Positions 43,402 to 60,626 are shown, counted from the stretch's first letter. The stretch: 64,000 nucleotides of DNA from GCF_054482525.1 NZ_CM137006.1; one strand, 5' to 3'. Notes: generated by a model not told the origin, from the letters alone. A program made the numbers and translations.

Positions 43402-43689
43402 ATGAACGAAGTTGTAAATTCAGGCGTGATGAACATTGCGTCTTTGGTTGTATCGGTGGTGGTTCTTCTTATCGGGCTCATCTTGTGGTTTTTTATCAAT
43501 CGTGCCAGTTCACGGACTAACGAACAGATTGAACTGCTTGAGGCGTTGCTGGATCAGCAAAAACGTCAAAATGCACTGTTACGTCGTTTGTGCGAAGCAA
43601 ACGAACCAGAGAAAGCAGATAAAAAGACCGTTGAGAGTCAAAAATCGGTTGAAGACGAAGATATTATTCGTCTGGTCGCCGAACGATAA
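43402..43689 (+). CDS. yebO: Small membrane protein YebO
   Basis: 95-aa ORF MNEVVNSGVMNIASLVVSVVVLLIGLILWFFINRASSRTNEQIELLEALLDQQKRQN…. Confidence 0.82.
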   Translation: MNEVVNSGVMNIASLVVSVVVLLIGLILWFFINRASSRTNEQIELLEALLDQQKRQNALLRRLCEANEPEKADKKTVESQKSVEDEDIIRLVAER

Positions 43690-44358
43690 TCCTTCCTCAA
43701 TCTTGAGTAACCCCGTCGTTGAAGGGTTACTCAATTCATCCTGATTATACGCACTGCCATGGTGCAACTGCTTCAAATTAAAACTCTGGTCTGACTTCAA
43801 ATAATTATCATATTATTTATTTGCGTAACGGGATATCAGAAAAAGATATTTAGCCCATTAATTTATTAGGATGTTTACATCGGATTTATGATTAAGTGTG
43901 GTATTATTTATTAGCGAAACGTTTCTCTCTTGATTTTTTTGCGCATTCATCAATTTTTCTTATTTTAAATTTACAATACCTTTGGCGATTGAGTTCTCTT
44001 TGGGGTGATTGATAGCCGTTAACTGACTGTTTTATGAGAAAAAGTGATATAACTTTTTATTCATTGCATAGCAGAAAATGTGATATTGCACGCACTATGT
44101 AATAACTTCTCCCATTGGCCTGGAACAACTGAACTTATTGAACTATGTTAGAAAATACGTCAGTTTAAGTATCTGCCTGAACTGGCAAGGTTAAGCACAA
44201 TGATATATCGGCGCGTATTCCGTTGCATAAGTGTGCAAAAAAAGTGGAAGACGTATCGAGATTTGTGCGTCTGATCGAGACATGTTTAAAAATGGCTTGC
44301 CATAATTAACGTTGTATGTGATAACAGATTTCGGGTTAAACGAGGTACAGTTCTGTTT

Positions 44359-46262: not shown

Positions 46263-46490
46263 GACAACGTCCTGACCGGGGTATCCATAAAACACATCAT
46301 CGCCCCCAGCAAACATGCATACATGAACAACAAGCCGCGATGGGTTTTCGCGTTCATGCAGGCATAGCGATTGATGTGCATATGGTCTCGCCTGACTGAA
46401 AGTGTTCAGTCCGTACGTGCCACGTTTTGCAACGAGTATGTTGACACGTACATTTCCGGAATCTGGAAATCGGCTACTCCCCAAATGAGG
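46263..46490 (-). promoter_or_regulatory. mntP 5' leader, expected to contain the Mn2+-responsive yybP-ykoY riboswitch (extent approximate)
   Basis: A roughly 230-nt untranslated leader precedes mntP; assignment relies on established knowledge of the E. coli mntP leader, not on a fold I could verify by eye. Confidence 0.5.
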
Positions 46491-46691
46491 GCGCAACCTT
46501 AACATATTTTGAGAATATAAAACAACTGTTGGAATATATTATTTCATTGCTTTATTGATAACGATTTTCATTTAGATTTATATATCAATGAAACGTTAAA
46601 ATAAATAACAAATAAGGGAAGAGGTAATATAGCCTTAGCTATGTCTGATTATTAAAAATACACTAAACATAGCTTTGGCTAAATTCATAAC

Positions 46692-47150
46692 TTATTGAGT
46701 TGAAACGAGAAGCTTATAAATTTTTTCCAGATCGTCGATATTTCGAACGCGGATTAACAGCCGACGCTGTTCTAATTGCATCACCAACACGCCATCTTCC
46801 GACAAGTTCATCGCTTTGATTCGGCTATATTCAATCCAGACATTGGCGAAGAAAAAACCTTTTTGTTTAAAGATGATCTTCGGAACGCGGATCCAGAATA
46901 TATAAAAACCCATCAGAGCCAGTGCACTTAATAACCATGTTGTTATTAGCGCGCCATGATTCGTGACGTTGTTATAGATAAGAATGACAATCAATCCGAC
47001 GAAGATAACGCTATCAATGCGACCACGCCGGAGCAAAGGAATTGCCAGCAGGGTGGGGCCGTTACGGCGGGGCATGATGAACTGATCGTAGATCGCGAAG
47101 GCCAGGAGTGCGGCGATGAAAAGAATCAGTACCAGGTCCGTGATTGTCAT
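46692..47150 (-). CDS. yobD: Inner-membrane protein YobD (DUF986)
   Basis: 152-aa hydrophobic [34 protein letters not shown]…. Confidence 0.85.
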
Positions 47151-55784: not shown

Positions 55785-57146
55785 TTACTTCTCCAGTTGG
55801 CGTAATATCTTATTAACTTTATCAAAAGTTTCCTGATATTCCGCTTCTTCCTGGCTATCGGCGACAATTCCACCGCCCGCAGAGCAGTATATTTGTCCGT
55901 TAATGGCAGTCAGCGTGCGGATAGTAATGCTGGTGTCCATATTGCCGCAAAAGCTCAAATAGCCAATGCTGCCGCACCAGGCATTGCGTCGGTGCGGTTC
56001 CAGTTCGTCGATAATTTCCATAGCCCGTACTTTCGGAGCCCCGGTTATTGAGCCACCAGGAAAAGCTGCGCGCAGCAGATCGCTGGCGTGTAACTGTTCT
56101 GGTAGCCGCGCCGTTATGGTGCTGACCAGATGATGCACGGCAGGGAAGGGTTCGACCACGAACAGCTCTGGTACTTTTACCGAACCAGCTACGGCAACGC
56201 GACCGATATCATTACGCATTAAATCAACAATCATCAGATTTTCAGCGCGATCTTTCGCTGAGTTCGCCAGTTTTTCTGCTTGTTTGCTATCTTCTTGGGG
56301 ATCGGGCAGGCGTGGTAGCGTGCCTTTAATCGGGCGGGTCTGGATTTCACTATTATCACAAAGGATAAACCGCTCTGGCGAAAGGCTTAAAATCGCGCCC
56401 TGTTCAAGACGTAAAAAAGCGCTAAATGGCGCGCGGTTGGCCTGATTAAGCTGAAGGAATGCCTGCCATTCATCGCCAGAATAGGCCGCATGAAAACGCT
56501 GGGCGAGATTCACCTGATAGCAATCACCGCTGTGCAGATATTCCTGTACCTGGCGAAATTTTTCGCCGTACTGCTCGCGGGTCATATTGGATTGCCAGTC
56601 GGAAGTGAGCGCGAAATCTTCCTGCGGGGAGAATTGCTGGTTTTCCAGCCAGGCCCGACGGGCATTGACATCATTATGACTCAGCAAAGAAACTGTTTGA
56701 CGCTGGTGGTCAACAACCAGCGCCCAGTCGTAGATACCCACTGCCATATCAGGCAGAACGATATCTTGCTGCGCAATTTCTGGCAGTGACTCAAAACGGC
56801 GGCCCAGATCGTAGCCAAACAACCCCAGCGCGCCGCCCTGAAATGGCAAATCTTCGTTATGCGCTGGGCGAATGTCTGCGCGATCCAGCACCTGCTGGAG
56901 CACCTGTAGCGGGTCATCAGTGGTCGTTGTGCGTTTTTCGCTTTCACAAACAACGGTTTCTTTACCGAAAGTGGTTAAAGTGCAAATCGGCTCGGCGACC
57001 ACAATATCAAAGCGGCTATACGGATGATCGGCATAGCCGGAGTGTAAAAGCATCGCCCACGGCAGGTGGCTTAAGCGGGTGAAATAAAATTCAGCGGCGT
57101 CCTGACGCCAGGGTAAAGTAATCACAGCGGGAGATAACGTCTTCAT
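55785..57146 (-). CDS. pabB: Aminodeoxychorismate synthase component I
   Basis: 453-aa ORF MKTLSPAVITLPWRQDAAEFYFTRLSHLPWAMLLHSGYADHPYSRFDIV…; chorismate-binding enzyme family. Confidence 0.93.
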   Translation of the reverse strand: MKTLSPAVITLPWRQDAAEFYFTRLSHLPWAMLLHSGYADHPYSRFDIVVAEPICTLTTFGKETVVCESEKRTTTTDDPLQVLQQVLDRADIRPAHNEDLPFQGGALGLFGYDLGRRFESLPEIAQQDIVLPDMAVGIYDWALVVDHQRQTVSLLSHNDVNARRAWLENQQFSPQEDFALTSDWQSNMTREQYGEKFRQVQEYLHSGDCYQVNLAQRFHAAYSGDEWQAFLQLNQANRAPFSAFLRLEQGAILSLSPERFILCDNSEIQTRPIKGTLPRLPDPQEDSKQAEKLANSAKDRAENLMIVDLMRNDIGRVAVAGSVKVPELFVVEPFPAVHHLVSTITARLPEQLHASDLLRAAFPGGSITGAPKVRAMEIIDELEPHRRNAWCGSIGYLSFCGNMDTSITIRTLTAINGQIYCSAGGGIVADSQEEAEYQETFDKVNKILRQLEK

Positions 57147-57219
57147 CAGTCCTGACTCTACTGGCTATGTGCCGGGTAGCATGAAATAATTAGCGCCAAC
57201 AATTTAGCAGGAGTTAACA

Positions 57220-57399
57220 ATGTTTGCAGGTTTACCTTCACTCACCCATGAACAGCAGCAAAAAGCCGTCGAGCGGATCCAGGAACTGATGGCACAAGGG
57301 ATGAGCAGCGGCCAGGCAATCGCGTTGGTGGCAGAAGAGCTGCGTGCCAACCATTCCGGCGAACGAATTGTGGCGCGTTTTGAGGATGAAGACGAGTAA
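57220..57399 (+). CDS. yoaH: UPF0181 small protein YoaH
   Basis: Read directly from DNA: ATG at 57220 gives [59 protein letters not shown], 59 aa. Confidence 0.8.
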
Positions 57400-57518
57400 C
57401 ACACTAATCCGTATCGCTTTCGTTATACAAGCCGATGGTTATTTGATTGTGAGAAAAAGGACGCTTTTCATATGTGATTAAAAGCGTCCTGACCCATTTA
57501 TGCTGATGTAAATTTAAC

Positions 57519-57818
57519 TTAGACCAGTGCTTTTAGTTCTTCCTGCATATATGTTGAAAAGTATTCAGGATTTTTAATCACAATGCGTTCACCAGACTCC
57601 ATTTTTTTTGCCCATCCAACCATTTTTTCCGTGAACCCCGGGTTCCAGCCTTCCTGGTCAGCTCGCGCCGTAATATCGGCGGCGCTCGCGGGTACTCCCA
57701 GTTCTTTTAAATATTTAAAGATTCCCTTTGCCGTGCTTTCATTCATCGAACTTGGTGTTGGCGCTGATACATCCATGGCACCAATGAAATCCAGGGCTTT
57801 ATCTATTACAGCAGGCAT
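57519..57818 (-). CDS. yoaC: DUF1889 protein YoaC
   Basis: ATG (complement 57816-57818) gives MPAVIDKALDFIGAMDVSAPTPSSMNESTAKGIFKYLKELGVPA…; 99 aa; the track ORF has a 20-codon in-frame extension. Confidence 0.78.
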   Translation of the reverse strand: MPAVIDKALDFIGAMDVSAPTPSSMNESTAKGIFKYLKELGVPASAADITARADQEGWNPGFTEKMVGWAKKMESGERIVIKNPEYFSTYMQEELKALV

Positions 57819-58239
57819 ATTCTTATCCTTAAAATTAACCATGTTATCGATAAGGCTATATATGACCTTAATTTGCATCTAATATCAAAGGGATTATAAC
57901 GATATGGCACGAGTTAACCTGTTGACATTCAGGTGTTTTAAAGGTAGCAGCTCATGGTGTGTTATCCAGTAAGAGGGAGAAAATTGACGGTCAGTTCTCA
58001 CGCTATAACCAAATTGTTCAGCTAAGAAAGAAAACCAGAGATGCTAATCGAAGGGCGAACACAACGGCATGGTTATGTTTATTTATATAGTTAGCTTTAT
58101 AGCTAAAATTGAAATTATAAAAATAAATAATGAATTAGCAGGAGCATCAACAGTAATATCTTAATCTCTGGTCGATTTATGTAAAACCGACCAGTATTAT
58201 CGATAAATTATCGTCTGACTTATTTTGCTTCGATAAAGC

Positions 58240-58584
58240 TTACACCGCAGCCACAATCTTAATTTCAACTTTATACTTCGGGTTCATCAAACCCGCTTGT
58301 ACCGTGCAGCGCACCGGCGCATGACCCGCGACAACCCAGGCATCCCACGCTTTATTCATCGCCGCGAAGTCGTTTTTATCGGCCAGGAAAATGGTGGCAT
58401 CCAGAATGCTCGATTTATTGCTGCCCTGTTTTTCCAGCACGGCGTCAATCTGCGCCAGCGTGTTGGCGGTTTGCTCAAAGGCATCGGCGTCGAGGTTTTC
58501 CGGTACACCAGTGTAGTAGAGCGTGTTGTTGTGGATTACTACATCAGACCAGCGGGCTTCAGCATCGATACGAACGATAGTCAT
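58240..58584 (-). CDS. yoaB: RidA/YjgF-family protein YoaB
   Basis: ATG (complement 58582-58584) gives MTIVRIDAEARWSDVVIHNNTLYYTGVPENLDADAFEQTANTLAQIDAVLEKQG…; 114 aa. Confidence 0.85.
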   Translation of the reverse strand: MTIVRIDAEARWSDVVIHNNTLYYTGVPENLDADAFEQTANTLAQIDAVLEKQGSNKSSILDATIFLADKNDFAAMNKAWDAWVVAGHAPVRCTVQAGLMNPKYKVEIKIVAAV

Positions 58585-58715
58585 CATTTTGTCCTCATTA
58601 TCCTTCCATTTTCGTGCTGCAAAGACTGCCACAATGTGAGGTCGCCGTCACCACTTCAACTGGCGAAAGCGCCCTCATCCTGACATAATCCCTGTTCAAA
58701 TCAACAGGGGGTAGT

Positions 58716-60626
58716 GTGACGGACGATTTTGCACCAGACGGTCAGTTGGCGAAAGCGATACCAGGCTTTAAGCCGCGAGAACCACAGCGACAGATGGCGG
58801 TAGCCGTCACCCAGGCGATAGAAAAAGGCCAGCCGCTGGTGGTGGAAGCCGGAACCGGTACGGGCAAAACCTACGCTTACCTGGCCCCTGCGCTGCGGGC
58901 GAAAAAGAAAGTCATTATCTCGACCGGTTCAAAAGCGTTGCAGGATCAGCTCTACAGCCGCGATTTGCCAACGGTTTCAAAGGCGTTGAAATATACGGGC
59001 AACGTGGCGTTGCTGAAAGGGCGCTCAAACTACCTCTGCCTCGAACGTCTTGAACAGCAGGCGCTGGCGGGGGGCGATCTGCCGGTACAAATCTTAAGCG
59101 ATGTGATCCTGCTGCGCTCCTGGTCTAATCAAACAGTCGATGGTGATATCAGCACCTGCGTCAGCGTGGCGGAAGATTCACAGGCGTGGCCGCTGGTCAC
59201 CAGCACCAACGACAACTGTCTTGGCAGCGACTGCCCGATGTATAAAGATTGCTTTGTGGTCAAAGCACGCAAAAAAGCGATGGACGCCGATGTGGTGGTG
59301 GTAAACCATCATCTCTTTCTGGCGGATATGGTGGTGAAAGAGAGTGGATTTGGCGAACTGATCCCGGAAGCGGACGTCATGATCTTTGACGAAGCCCATC
59401 AGCTGCCCGACATTGCCAGCCAGTATTTTGGTCAGTCACTCTCCAGTCGACAACTGCTCGACCTGGCAAAAGACATCACCATCGCCTACCGCACCGAATT
59501 AAAAGACACCCAGCAGTTACAAAAGTGCGCCGACCGCCTTGCCCAGAGCGCGCAGGATTTTCGCCTGCAATTAGGTGAGCCAGGTTATCGTGGCAACCTG
59601 CGCGAACTGTTAGCTAATCCGCAAATTCAGCGGGCGTTTTTACTGCTCGATGACACCCTGGAACTTTGTTATGACGTGGCGAAACTGTCGCTGGGGCGTT
59701 CCGCCTTGCTGGATGCAGCATTTGAGCGCGCCACGTTGTATCGCACGCGGCTGAAACGGCTAAAAGAGATCAATCAGCCGGGCTACAGCTACTGGTACGA
59801 ATGCACTTCGCGCCATTTTACTCTGGCGCTCACGCCGCTCAGCGTGGCGGATAAATTCAAAGAGTTAATGGCGCAAAAACTAGGTAGCTGGATCTTTACC
59901 TCAGCAACGCTGTCGGTGAATGACGATCTGCATCATTTCACCTCGCGGCTTGGCATTGAACAGGCAGAGTCGTTGCTGTTACCCAGCCCGTTTGATTACA
60001 GCCGCCAGGCGTTACTCTGTGTGCCGCGCAACCTGCCGCAAACTAATCAACCGGGTTCCGCACGGCAACTGGCGGCAATGCTGCGACCGATCATCGAAGC
60101 TAACAACGGTCGTTGTTTTATGCTTTGTACCTCGCACGCCATGATGCGCGATCTGGCTGAGCAGTTCCGCGCTACCATGACGCTTCCCGTTTTGTTGCAG
60201 GGGGAAACCAGCAAAGGGCAACTGTTGCAGCAATTTGTCAGCGCCGGTAACGCGCTTCTTGTGGCAACCAGCAGCTTCTGGGAAGGGGTGGATGTGCGTG
60301 GCGATACATTGTCGCTGGTGATTATCGACAAGTTGCCGTTTACCTCACCGGATGATCCACTATTAAAAGCGCGCATGGAAGATTGCCGTTTGCGCGGTGG
60401 CGACCCGTTCGATGAAGTACAACTACCGGATGCGGTGATTACTCTCAAGCAGGGGGTAGGGCGACTGATTCGCGACGCCGACGATCGCGGGGTTTTGGTG
60501 ATTTGTGACAATCGGCTGGTGATGCGCCCTTACGGCGCGACGTTTCTCGCCAGTCTGCCGCCCGCGCCGCGCACCCGTGACATTGCCCGTGCGGTTCGCT
60601 TCCTTGCGATACCATCCTCCAGGTAA
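58716..60626 (+). CDS. yoaA: DinG-family ATP-dependent DNA helicase YoaA
   Basis: 636-aa ORF; Walker A VVEAGTGTGKT, DEAH-type box (IFDEAHQLPD), cysteine cluster (CLGSDCPMYKDC) typical of Fe-S DinG/Rad3 helicases. Confidence 0.92.
   Translation: MTDDFAPDGQLAKAIPGFKPREPQRQMAVAVTQAIEKGQPLVVEAGTGTGKTYAYLAPALRAKKKVIISTGSKALQDQLYSRDLPTVSKALKYTGNVALLKGRSNYLCLERLEQQALAGGDLPVQILSDVILLRSWSNQTVDGDISTCVSVAEDSQAWPLVTSTNDNCLGSDCPMYKDCFVVKARKKAMDADVVVVNHHLFLADMVVKESGFGELIPEADVMIFDEAHQLPDIASQYFGQSLSSRQLLDLAKDITIAYRTELKDTQQLQKCADRLAQSAQDFRLQLGEPGYRGNLRELLANPQIQRAFLLLDDTLELCYDVAKLSLGRSALLDAAFERATLYRTRLKRLKEINQPGYSYWYECTSRHFTLALTPLSVADKFKELMAQKLGSWIFTSATLSVNDDLHHFTSRLGIEQAESLLLPSPFDYSRQALLCVPRNLPQTNQPGSARQLAAMLRPIIEANNGRCFMLCTSHAMMRDLAEQFRATMTLPVLLQGETSKGQLLQQFVSAGNALLVATSSFWEGVDVRGDTLSLVIIDKLPFTSPDDPLLKARMEDCRLRGGDPFDEVQLPDAVITLKQGVGRLIRDADDRGVLVICDNRLVMRPYGATFLASLPPAPRTRDIARAVRFLAIPSSR

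Follow-up and report, generated by a model that had tools for sequence, protein, structure and literature searches.

The AT-rich spacer between yoaB and yoaC in Escherichia coli is probably the non-coding upstream arm of a lineage-specific insertion

The AT-rich spacer between yoaB and yoaC in Escherichia coli is probably the non-coding upstream arm of an Escherichia-specific insertion, in which the end of the yoaB transcript, a stretch of neutral filler and the yoaC promoter follow one another. The spacer shows no sign of encoding a protein or a known RNA. Even in a genome as well studied as this one, a long AT-rich gap need not conceal a gene: here, neutral filler can be told apart from a promoter and 5' UTR module of 136 bp and from a hairpin of 27 nt, and the locus would make a clean, small example of a gene that brings its own promoter into a gap between convergent genes. 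The functional marks of the spacer are already present in published genome-wide datasets, which are mapped here onto a 64,000-nt stretch of genomic DNA (NZ_CM137006.1 of the assembly GCF_054482525.1), hereafter the window.

The yoaB-yoaC intergenic gap corresponds to positions 57819-58239 of the window (1893712-1894132 in K-12). The first-pass annotation of this DNA, made from the sequence alone, had placed both genes on the minus strand and described the gap between them as unusually long and AT-rich. Both statements are confirmed by the gene coordinates (Table 1) and by the composition of the spacer, which is 421 bp long and has a GC content of 0.335, compared with the mean of 0.502 for the 64-kb window. 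Only 0.38% of the 421-bp windows across the 64 kb are equally AT-rich, and the 62-nt tract that had been quoted as an example (58078-58139) has a GC content of 0.145, within the lowest 0.02%. The sole other stretches of the window that are as AT-rich as the spacer are 43640-44256, which maps to the long yobF-yebO intergenic region, and 46449-46950, which maps to the 3' end of yobD and the yobD-mntP intergenic region. Among 11 intergenic gaps in the surrounding 12 kb of K-12, the spacer is also the longest. It is found in 5411 of the 5426 complete E. coli genomes, mostly with 95-99% identity to the window, and is identical in strain 042. RefSeq contains no annotation inside the spacer in K-12 MG1655, 042 or CFT073, and none is present among the matches listed from two E. 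coli searches (80 rows). From yoaB to yoaC, the numbering of the locus tags leaves out one value in 042 (RS10480 to RS10490), CFT073 (RS10470 to RS10480) and SMS-3-5 (RS06975 to RS06985; records L001, L003 and L077), which suggests a former gene call in the spacer that was later withdrawn.

Table 1. Features of the yoaB-yoaC spacer and the adjacent DNA, in window coordinates
Feature	Position	Strand	Description	Variable columns (11 E. coli)	Identity to other Escherichia
Escherichia-lineage insertion	57400-58239		~840 bp; spacer, yoaC and 119-bp 3' flank, between convergent yoaB and yoaH		
Bidirectional terminator hairpin	57458-57490	both	between yoaC and yoaH, in the 119-bp 3' flank		
yoaC	57519-57818	-	DUF1889 (Pfam), 99 aa		
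Zone C, yoaC promoter and 5' UTR module	57819-57954	-	136 bp, conserved	3.7%	77-90%
5' UTR element GGTTAATTTTAAGGATAAGAAT	57819-57840	-	includes the SD AAGGA (57826-57830)		
Palindrome TTATCGATAA, proximal copy	57844-57853	-	zone C		
CATATA, candidate -10	57859-57864	-	TTGATA-N18-CATATA arrangement		
TTGATA, candidate -35	57883-57888	-	conserved across genera		
Perfect TATAAT	57893-57898	-	invariant in Escherichia; no good -35		
C-rich, G-poor untranslated stretch	57902-58031	- (sense)	C/G 1.6-2.1 in 78-nt windows; spans the Rho peak		
YhaJ-box-like TTAAAACACCTGAATG	57926-57941	-	zone C		
Zone B	57955-58163		quoted tract, MEME YhaJ motif, TATAAT (58114-58119), promoter-like matches on both strands	18.7%	44-64%, many gaps
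YhaJ ChIP-seq peak centre	58160-58178		CFT073 2045445 and 2045463, mapped via the CFT073 locus		
Zone A	58164-58239		yoaB 3' UTR; hairpin kept	7.9%	56-64% overall
RNA hairpin	58168-58194	-	CUGGUCGGUUU-UACAU-AAAUCGACCAG; 27 nt, about -15.5 kcal/mol, 11-bp stem		
yoaB 3' UTR AT-rich box	58195-58239	-	holds TCGATAAATT, TCGATAAA and TTATCGATAA		
yoaB	58240-58584	-			
Third codon positions, yoaB / yoaC (comparison)				14.8% / 16%	63-79%

The yoaB and yoaH genes are convergent in Salmonella, Klebsiella and Enterobacter, with stop codons 0-5 bp apart and no islet DNA at the junction; the ~840 bp that separates the two genes in Escherichia is therefore an insertion of the Escherichia lineage, and this origin explains both the length and the AT-richness of the spacer. 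Scanning of the YoaC alignment against one genome per species yields 66 loci, and only those of Escherichia have yoaC between yoaB and yoaH. In the 61 non-Escherichia loci, yoaC is sited elsewhere, with yoaA, yoaB, yoaH and pabB all more than 3 kb away in Kluyvera, Buttiauxella, Citrobacter, Klebsiella, Raoultella, Atlantibacter and others. yoaC would thus have arrived together with its own promoter and separated yoaB from yoaH, which had abutted before.

The yoaB/yoaC/yoaH locus is an insertion hotspot. At the yoaB/yoaH junction of Kluyvera intermedia, an unrelated gene for a 350-aa protein (L072 2881-3933) is inserted in place of yoaC, and E. fergusonii as well as two cryptic-clade genomes carry additional genes within the islet. 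The 350-aa protein shows a faint match to DUF7716. A 150-aa ORF lies between yoaC and yoaH in L005 and L006 (3390-3842 in both), and the copy from L005, the one scanned, encodes a pentapeptide-repeat protein; the E. fergusonii islet (L074 3046-3945) encodes 257-aa and 40-aa proteins that lack a family match, and the yoaA-yoaB gap of the same genome (1311-1732) holds two genes, one with DUF4177 and another of 70 aa. The yoaC islet resembles other small islets at convergent-gene junctions in its precise placement between two convergent stop codons that are otherwise 0-5 bp apart, and in the variable content of the junction, which holds a different gene in K. intermedia and additional ones in both E. 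fergusonii and the cryptic clades. Unlike such islets, it has no terminal repeats, target-site duplication, integrase or IS element. A mobile-element origin was rejected given that there is no phage match and no true plasmid relative; the plasmid matches of the islet are mislabelled chromosomes or large Klebsiella replicons with yoaC homologues. Several E. coli chromosomes of 4.8-4.9 Mb are filed under plasmids in the plasmid collection (H81, H82 and H84). In E. coli D72 (L075), an IS1A insertion and the deletion next to it have eliminated most of the spacer together with the yoaC N-terminus; the islet is dispensable in this strain.

In alignments of nine Escherichia sequences and of eleven diverse E. 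coli, the spacer splits into three zones (Table 1). Zone C, the 136 bp nearest to yoaC, is 100% identical across 042, K-12 and CFT073 and ~4-fold less variable than synonymous sites; this part of the spacer is under strong constraint. Zone B is unconstrained and is wholly missing in E. fergusonii and Escherichia sp. MOD1-EC7003 (L004), which keep yoaC and zone C, and therefore behaves as neutral, dispensable DNA. The quoted AT-rich tract belongs to zone B, the least conserved part of the spacer, as does a sense-strand TATAAT that is specific to E. coli. The constraint on zone A is intermediate; the AT-rich box at its yoaB end survives only in part in other Escherichia, and E. fergusonii has lost it by deletion. 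The ~200 bp of AT-rich filler would be neutral, losable without consequence and, like other acquired AT-rich DNA, likely to offer degenerate sites for H-NS and LysR-type regulators.

The last ~136 bp of the spacer would be the actual control region of yoaC, consisting of a promoter and a short, nearly invariant 5' UTR with an SD. Zone C looks like a self-sufficient promoter, part of which travels with yoaC in other genera: its proximal ~90 nt align over 60 loci from many genera, other genera have a conserved counterpart of TTGATA-N18-CATATA (CTTTGATAT...CATAGTATA) ahead of yoaC, the longer order CTTTGATAT...CATAGTATA...GGTTAATTTTAAGGATAAGA is kept across genera as well, and TTGATA...CATAGT-like elements with the same reach are candidates for the -35 and -10 of a sigma-70 promoter. 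Zone C offers two candidate -10 elements, the perfect TATAAT and CATATA, and the Cappable-seq supplements contain no coordinates that match. The -35 elements are weak, so that the promoter is probably activator-dependent. Downstream of the promoter, GGTTAATTTTAAGGATAAGAAT is 92-100% identical in most of ~60 loci, compared with only ~70% identity among the YoaC proteins themselves, and the constraint beyond the SD possibly reflects a translational regulator or an sRNA target. A 5' UTR hairpin that sequesters the SD was rejected, with RNAalifold on 60 sequences giving -0.59 kcal/mol and no covariation.

The near-identity of the segment upstream of yoaC bears on the start of the protein as well. 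The 99-aa start agrees with RefSeq for 042 and K-12, and database entries with starts upstream of this ATG give YoaC 119 aa (P0002), 129 aa (P0024-P0028) or 107 aa (P0118), across 57819-57878 of the window. Such an N-terminal extension (MVNFKDKN...) was rejected, since other genera have 1-nt indels and have lost the upstream ATG. Across genera the segment remains nearly identical in nucleotides despite the frame-breaking indels; this stretch is non-coding and the 99-aa start is therefore correct, so that the 107-, 119- and 129-aa calls are probably over-extended into mis-annotated 5' UTR. Structures of a YoaC homologue are available (PDB 2es9 and 2jn8), and the yoaC deletion is among the most boric-acid-sensitive mutants of the Keio collection, with partial complementation (PMC11502571). 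Two loci labelled as Flavobacterium psychrophilum (L049, a MAG) and Chryseobacterium sp. (L066) contain an enterobacterial-type yoaC (65-68% identity) along with the conserved enterobacterial 5' UTR and are likely to represent assembly contamination or mislabelling.

At the opposite end of the spacer, an RNA hairpin 45-72 nt past the yoaB stop forms in nine of nine Escherichia sequences. In its alignment, paired cells make up 93.8%, and none of 500 shuffles reaches the covariation score (8 sequences, ~3 independent events), with compensatory changes in two pairs (G-C to A-U and C-G to U-A); two G.U wobbles are tolerated on the minus strand only. The stem-loop is G+C-rich, as in a canonical intrinsic terminator, but a U-tract is not found 3' of the stem, which is followed by AGAUUAAG with 2 U in 8 nt, and a terminator scan of 57400-58750 reports no canonical intrinsic terminator; assignment to this class was accordingly rejected. 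The yoaB transcript has its stable 3' end at this hairpin: in three of three growth conditions, Term-seq finds RNA that ends at K-12 1893787 (+) (Adams 2021, PMC7815308), which maps to position 58164 of the window, 4 nt beyond the stem. The same dataset contains a Rho-termination region with a peak at K-12 1894019 (+) after treatment with bicyclomycin (BCM) (score 3.15, significance 2.4e-6, class orphan; PMC7815308). The Rho score is computed over 800-nt windows, so that the position of this peak, ~57932 in the window and hence in zone C, is coarse. The peak lies within untranslated RNA that is C-rich and G-poor, with no supported ORF at 57902-58031; the C-richness of the sense strand begins in zone B toward yoaC and continues into zone C.

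The 3' ends of Rho-terminated transcripts can be trimmed back to a stable upstream stem-loop. By analogy, yoaB transcripts would enter untranslated RNA, AT-rich at first and C-rich thereafter, where Rho would halt them, and their 3' ends would then be trimmed back to the hairpin, the trimming step being deduced from what is generally known of Rho-dependent 3' ends; yoaC would thereby be insulated from yoaB read-through. The similarity to known Rho-dependent 3' ends with a protective stem-loop consists in the stable hairpin that lacks a U-tract, the RNA 3' end a few nucleotides beyond it, the bicyclomycin-sensitive read-through downstream and the C-rich, G-poor untranslated stretch, whereas the difference is that trimming here is only deduced and the Rho signal has a resolution of ~800 nt. 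Alternatively, the hairpin could act as a weak, non-canonical intrinsic terminator.

The absence of a supported ORF, stated in the first-pass annotation, holds for the spacer, whose ORFs are neither conserved nor constrained, and its suggestion that the interval might encode a small unannotated product is not borne out. It is very improbable that the spacer specifies such a product, be it a 31-aa toxin-like (type I) or membrane peptide or an sRNA that ends at the hairpin. A hydrophobic ORF of 31 aa on the plus strand (58069-58164, MVMFIYIVSFIAKIEIIKINNELAGASTVIS) is indeed present in 042 and CFT073 and, in an extended form, in K-12, where its stop codon is lost; however, its pN is about equal to its pS, with four amino-acid differences among the three strains, a properly spaced SD was not found upstream of it, and it is absent outside E. 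coli. The promoter-like match on the plus strand at 58082-58109, with the hairpin downstream, might seem to fit a small transcript, but this match sits inside the ORF, and the wobble pairs allow the hairpin to work on the minus strand only. The cryptic Escherichia clades have a sense-strand ORF of 33-51 aa in the homologous DNA (pN/pS 0.56-0.92), but in E. coli it is cut to 10 codons. A six-frame comparison of nine Escherichia spacers finds no open frame common to all, and a decayed gene was rejected on the same ground, the open frames being inconsistent across the nine sequences. Within the spacer, Term-seq detects no 3' end on the minus strand of K-12 (PMC7815308), a permissive Rfam scan of 57000-59000 gives no match in it, a search of one ribosome-profiling supplement on small ORFs retrieves nothing for yoaB, yoaC or 1893700-1894099, and the current K-12 annotation has no gene inside the spacer. 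The only Rfam match in 57000-59000 is to SpR14 (E = 0.42, below the gathering threshold), on the yoaC/yoaH terminator hairpin, and is attributable to chance.

The other proposal of the first-pass annotation, that the spacer is a regulatory region, is supported mainly by published data mapped here (YhaJ, YeiE, Term-seq and Rho) and, in addition, by the constraint on the 136 bp of zone C. The yoaC promoter would be regulated by LysR-type factors, namely YhaJ and YeiE, for both of which binding has been published. In ChIP-exo data, YeiE occupies DNA upstream of the yoaC promoter at which RNA polymerase is bound, and its effect is activating (Gao 2018, PMC6237786). YhaJ ChIP-seq peaks are found at yoaC in both EHEC and UPEC (Connolly 2019, PMC6765310, SI Tables S3/S4), and yoaC is called a known regulated gene of YhaJ in the same study; a paper on the YhaJ regulon does not mention yoaC (Palevsky 2016). 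The location of the peak is odd enough to be flagged: its centre is ~340-360 bp from the yoaC start codon and ~230 bp from the conserved promoter module, and the EHEC table gives the same geometry, with the peak at -305 and the motif 65 bp off centre (PMC6765310). Given this ~230-bp distance and a position outside TTAAAACACCTGAATG, YhaJ may act at a distal promoter or architecturally rather than as a classical -65/-35 activator. The YhaJ box is TCA-N7-TGA, of the T-N11-A type (Palevsky 2016). The MEME-predicted motif TTATAGATAAAATTGA corresponds to TTATAGCTAAAATTGA at 58097-58112 of the window, inside the quoted tract and 65-66 bp from the peak centre; on the sense strand (TCAATTTTAGCTATAA), its second half-site is poor, and the site is variable within E. 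coli. The best box-like sequence, TTAAAACACCTGAATG, has 1 mismatch, agrees at 13/16 positions with the site given for yhaJ itself, and lies outside the ChIP peak window; ~2 one-mismatch matches are expected by chance in 421 bp (an estimate). Like the other promoters of the YhaJ regulon (yqjF, ybiJ, yhaK and yhhW; Palevsky 2016, Connolly 2019), the spacer is enriched for YhaJ in vivo in both EHEC and UPEC, belongs to a gene listed among the known targets and contains T-N11-A-type sequences; unlike them, it has no clean TCA-N7-TGA box and its peak is unusually distant from the start codon.

Binding of the spacer by the nucleoid protein H-NS, which the first-pass annotation had considered, is plausible from the motif. 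The high-affinity H-NS consensus is tCGATAAATT (Lang 2007, PMC2094087), and an exact 10/10 match, TCGATAAATT, is located at 58200-58209 on the plus strand, the sole exact match in the 64 kb, with a second site, TCGATAAA, at 58230-58237; the consensus positions do not vary among 11 E. coli. The spacer accordingly resembles H-NS-bound acquired DNA (Lang 2007) in being AT-rich (0.335 vs 0.502) and lineage-specific and in having an exact tCGATAAATT amid poorer AT-rich matches, but differs in the tiny size of the islet (~840 bp) and in the expression of yoaC under standard conditions. On a stronger version of this reading, the spacer would serve mainly as a platform for H-NS nucleation and silencing that keeps the acquired yoaC quiet, with YhaJ and YeiE as counter-silencers rather than classical activators. 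The further TCGATAA copies that flank the consensus, the low GC content of the lineage-specific DNA and the YhaJ peak centre merely ~20-40 bp from the consensus are all in keeping with such a role; nevertheless, it is unlikely, given that a single 10-mer match is weak, that some Escherichia do not keep the box, which is deleted in E. fergusonii, and that Term-seq recovers the 3' end at the yoaC terminator in all three conditions. The latter observation implies that yoaC is expressed in standard growth. At this yoaC/yoaH terminator, 3' ends are seen on both strands, a very strong one at K-12 1894457 (-) and others at 1894497/8 (+), and a Rho region antisense to yoaC is reported at K-12 1894397 (-) (PMC7815308).

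The remaining alternative treats the spacer as a long regulated leader. YhaJ, bound at ~58160-58180, would activate the distal TATAAT of zone B, with a TSS near 58107, to produce a ~290-nt untranslated leader that is normally stopped by Rho near 57932, so that expression of yoaC would require both induction through YhaJ (by quinone-like or aromatic compounds) and escape from Rho. Several observations fit together in this scheme: relative to the putative distal TSS, YhaJ enrichment is centred ~60-65 bp upstream, where a LysR recognition site is classically found, the TATAAT is perfect (spacer positions 121-126), the orphan Rho signal lies between it and yoaC, and the sense strand downstream is C-rich. 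The scheme is nonetheless improbable. Only E. coli has the distal TATAAT, which is embedded in neutrally evolving DNA, has no recognisable -35 and is not reported by a promoter scan; zone B is missing in the genomes of E. fergusonii and MOD1-EC7003, which retain yoaC with zone C; zone C looks self-sufficient and travels with yoaC in other genera; and read-through from yoaB can account for the RNA upstream of the Rho site. A combination of the two schemes, in which the distal half of the spacer is an E. coli-specific add-on, with YhaJ bound beside the H-NS site and the hairpin and with the ~290-nt leader attenuated by Rho, such that counter-silencing is coupled to anti-termination, is likewise doubtful. 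If true, it would mean that yoaC, a gene for boric acid tolerance, is under two-layer control built de novo from inserted AT-rich DNA.

The perfect 10-bp palindrome TTATCGATAA, which may be either a chance repetition or a paired operator, occurs twice, at the two ends of the spacer (57844-57853 and 58197-58206), 353 bp apart. Both copies are perfect in E. coli only, and the distal copy reads TTATCGACAA in B2 strains.
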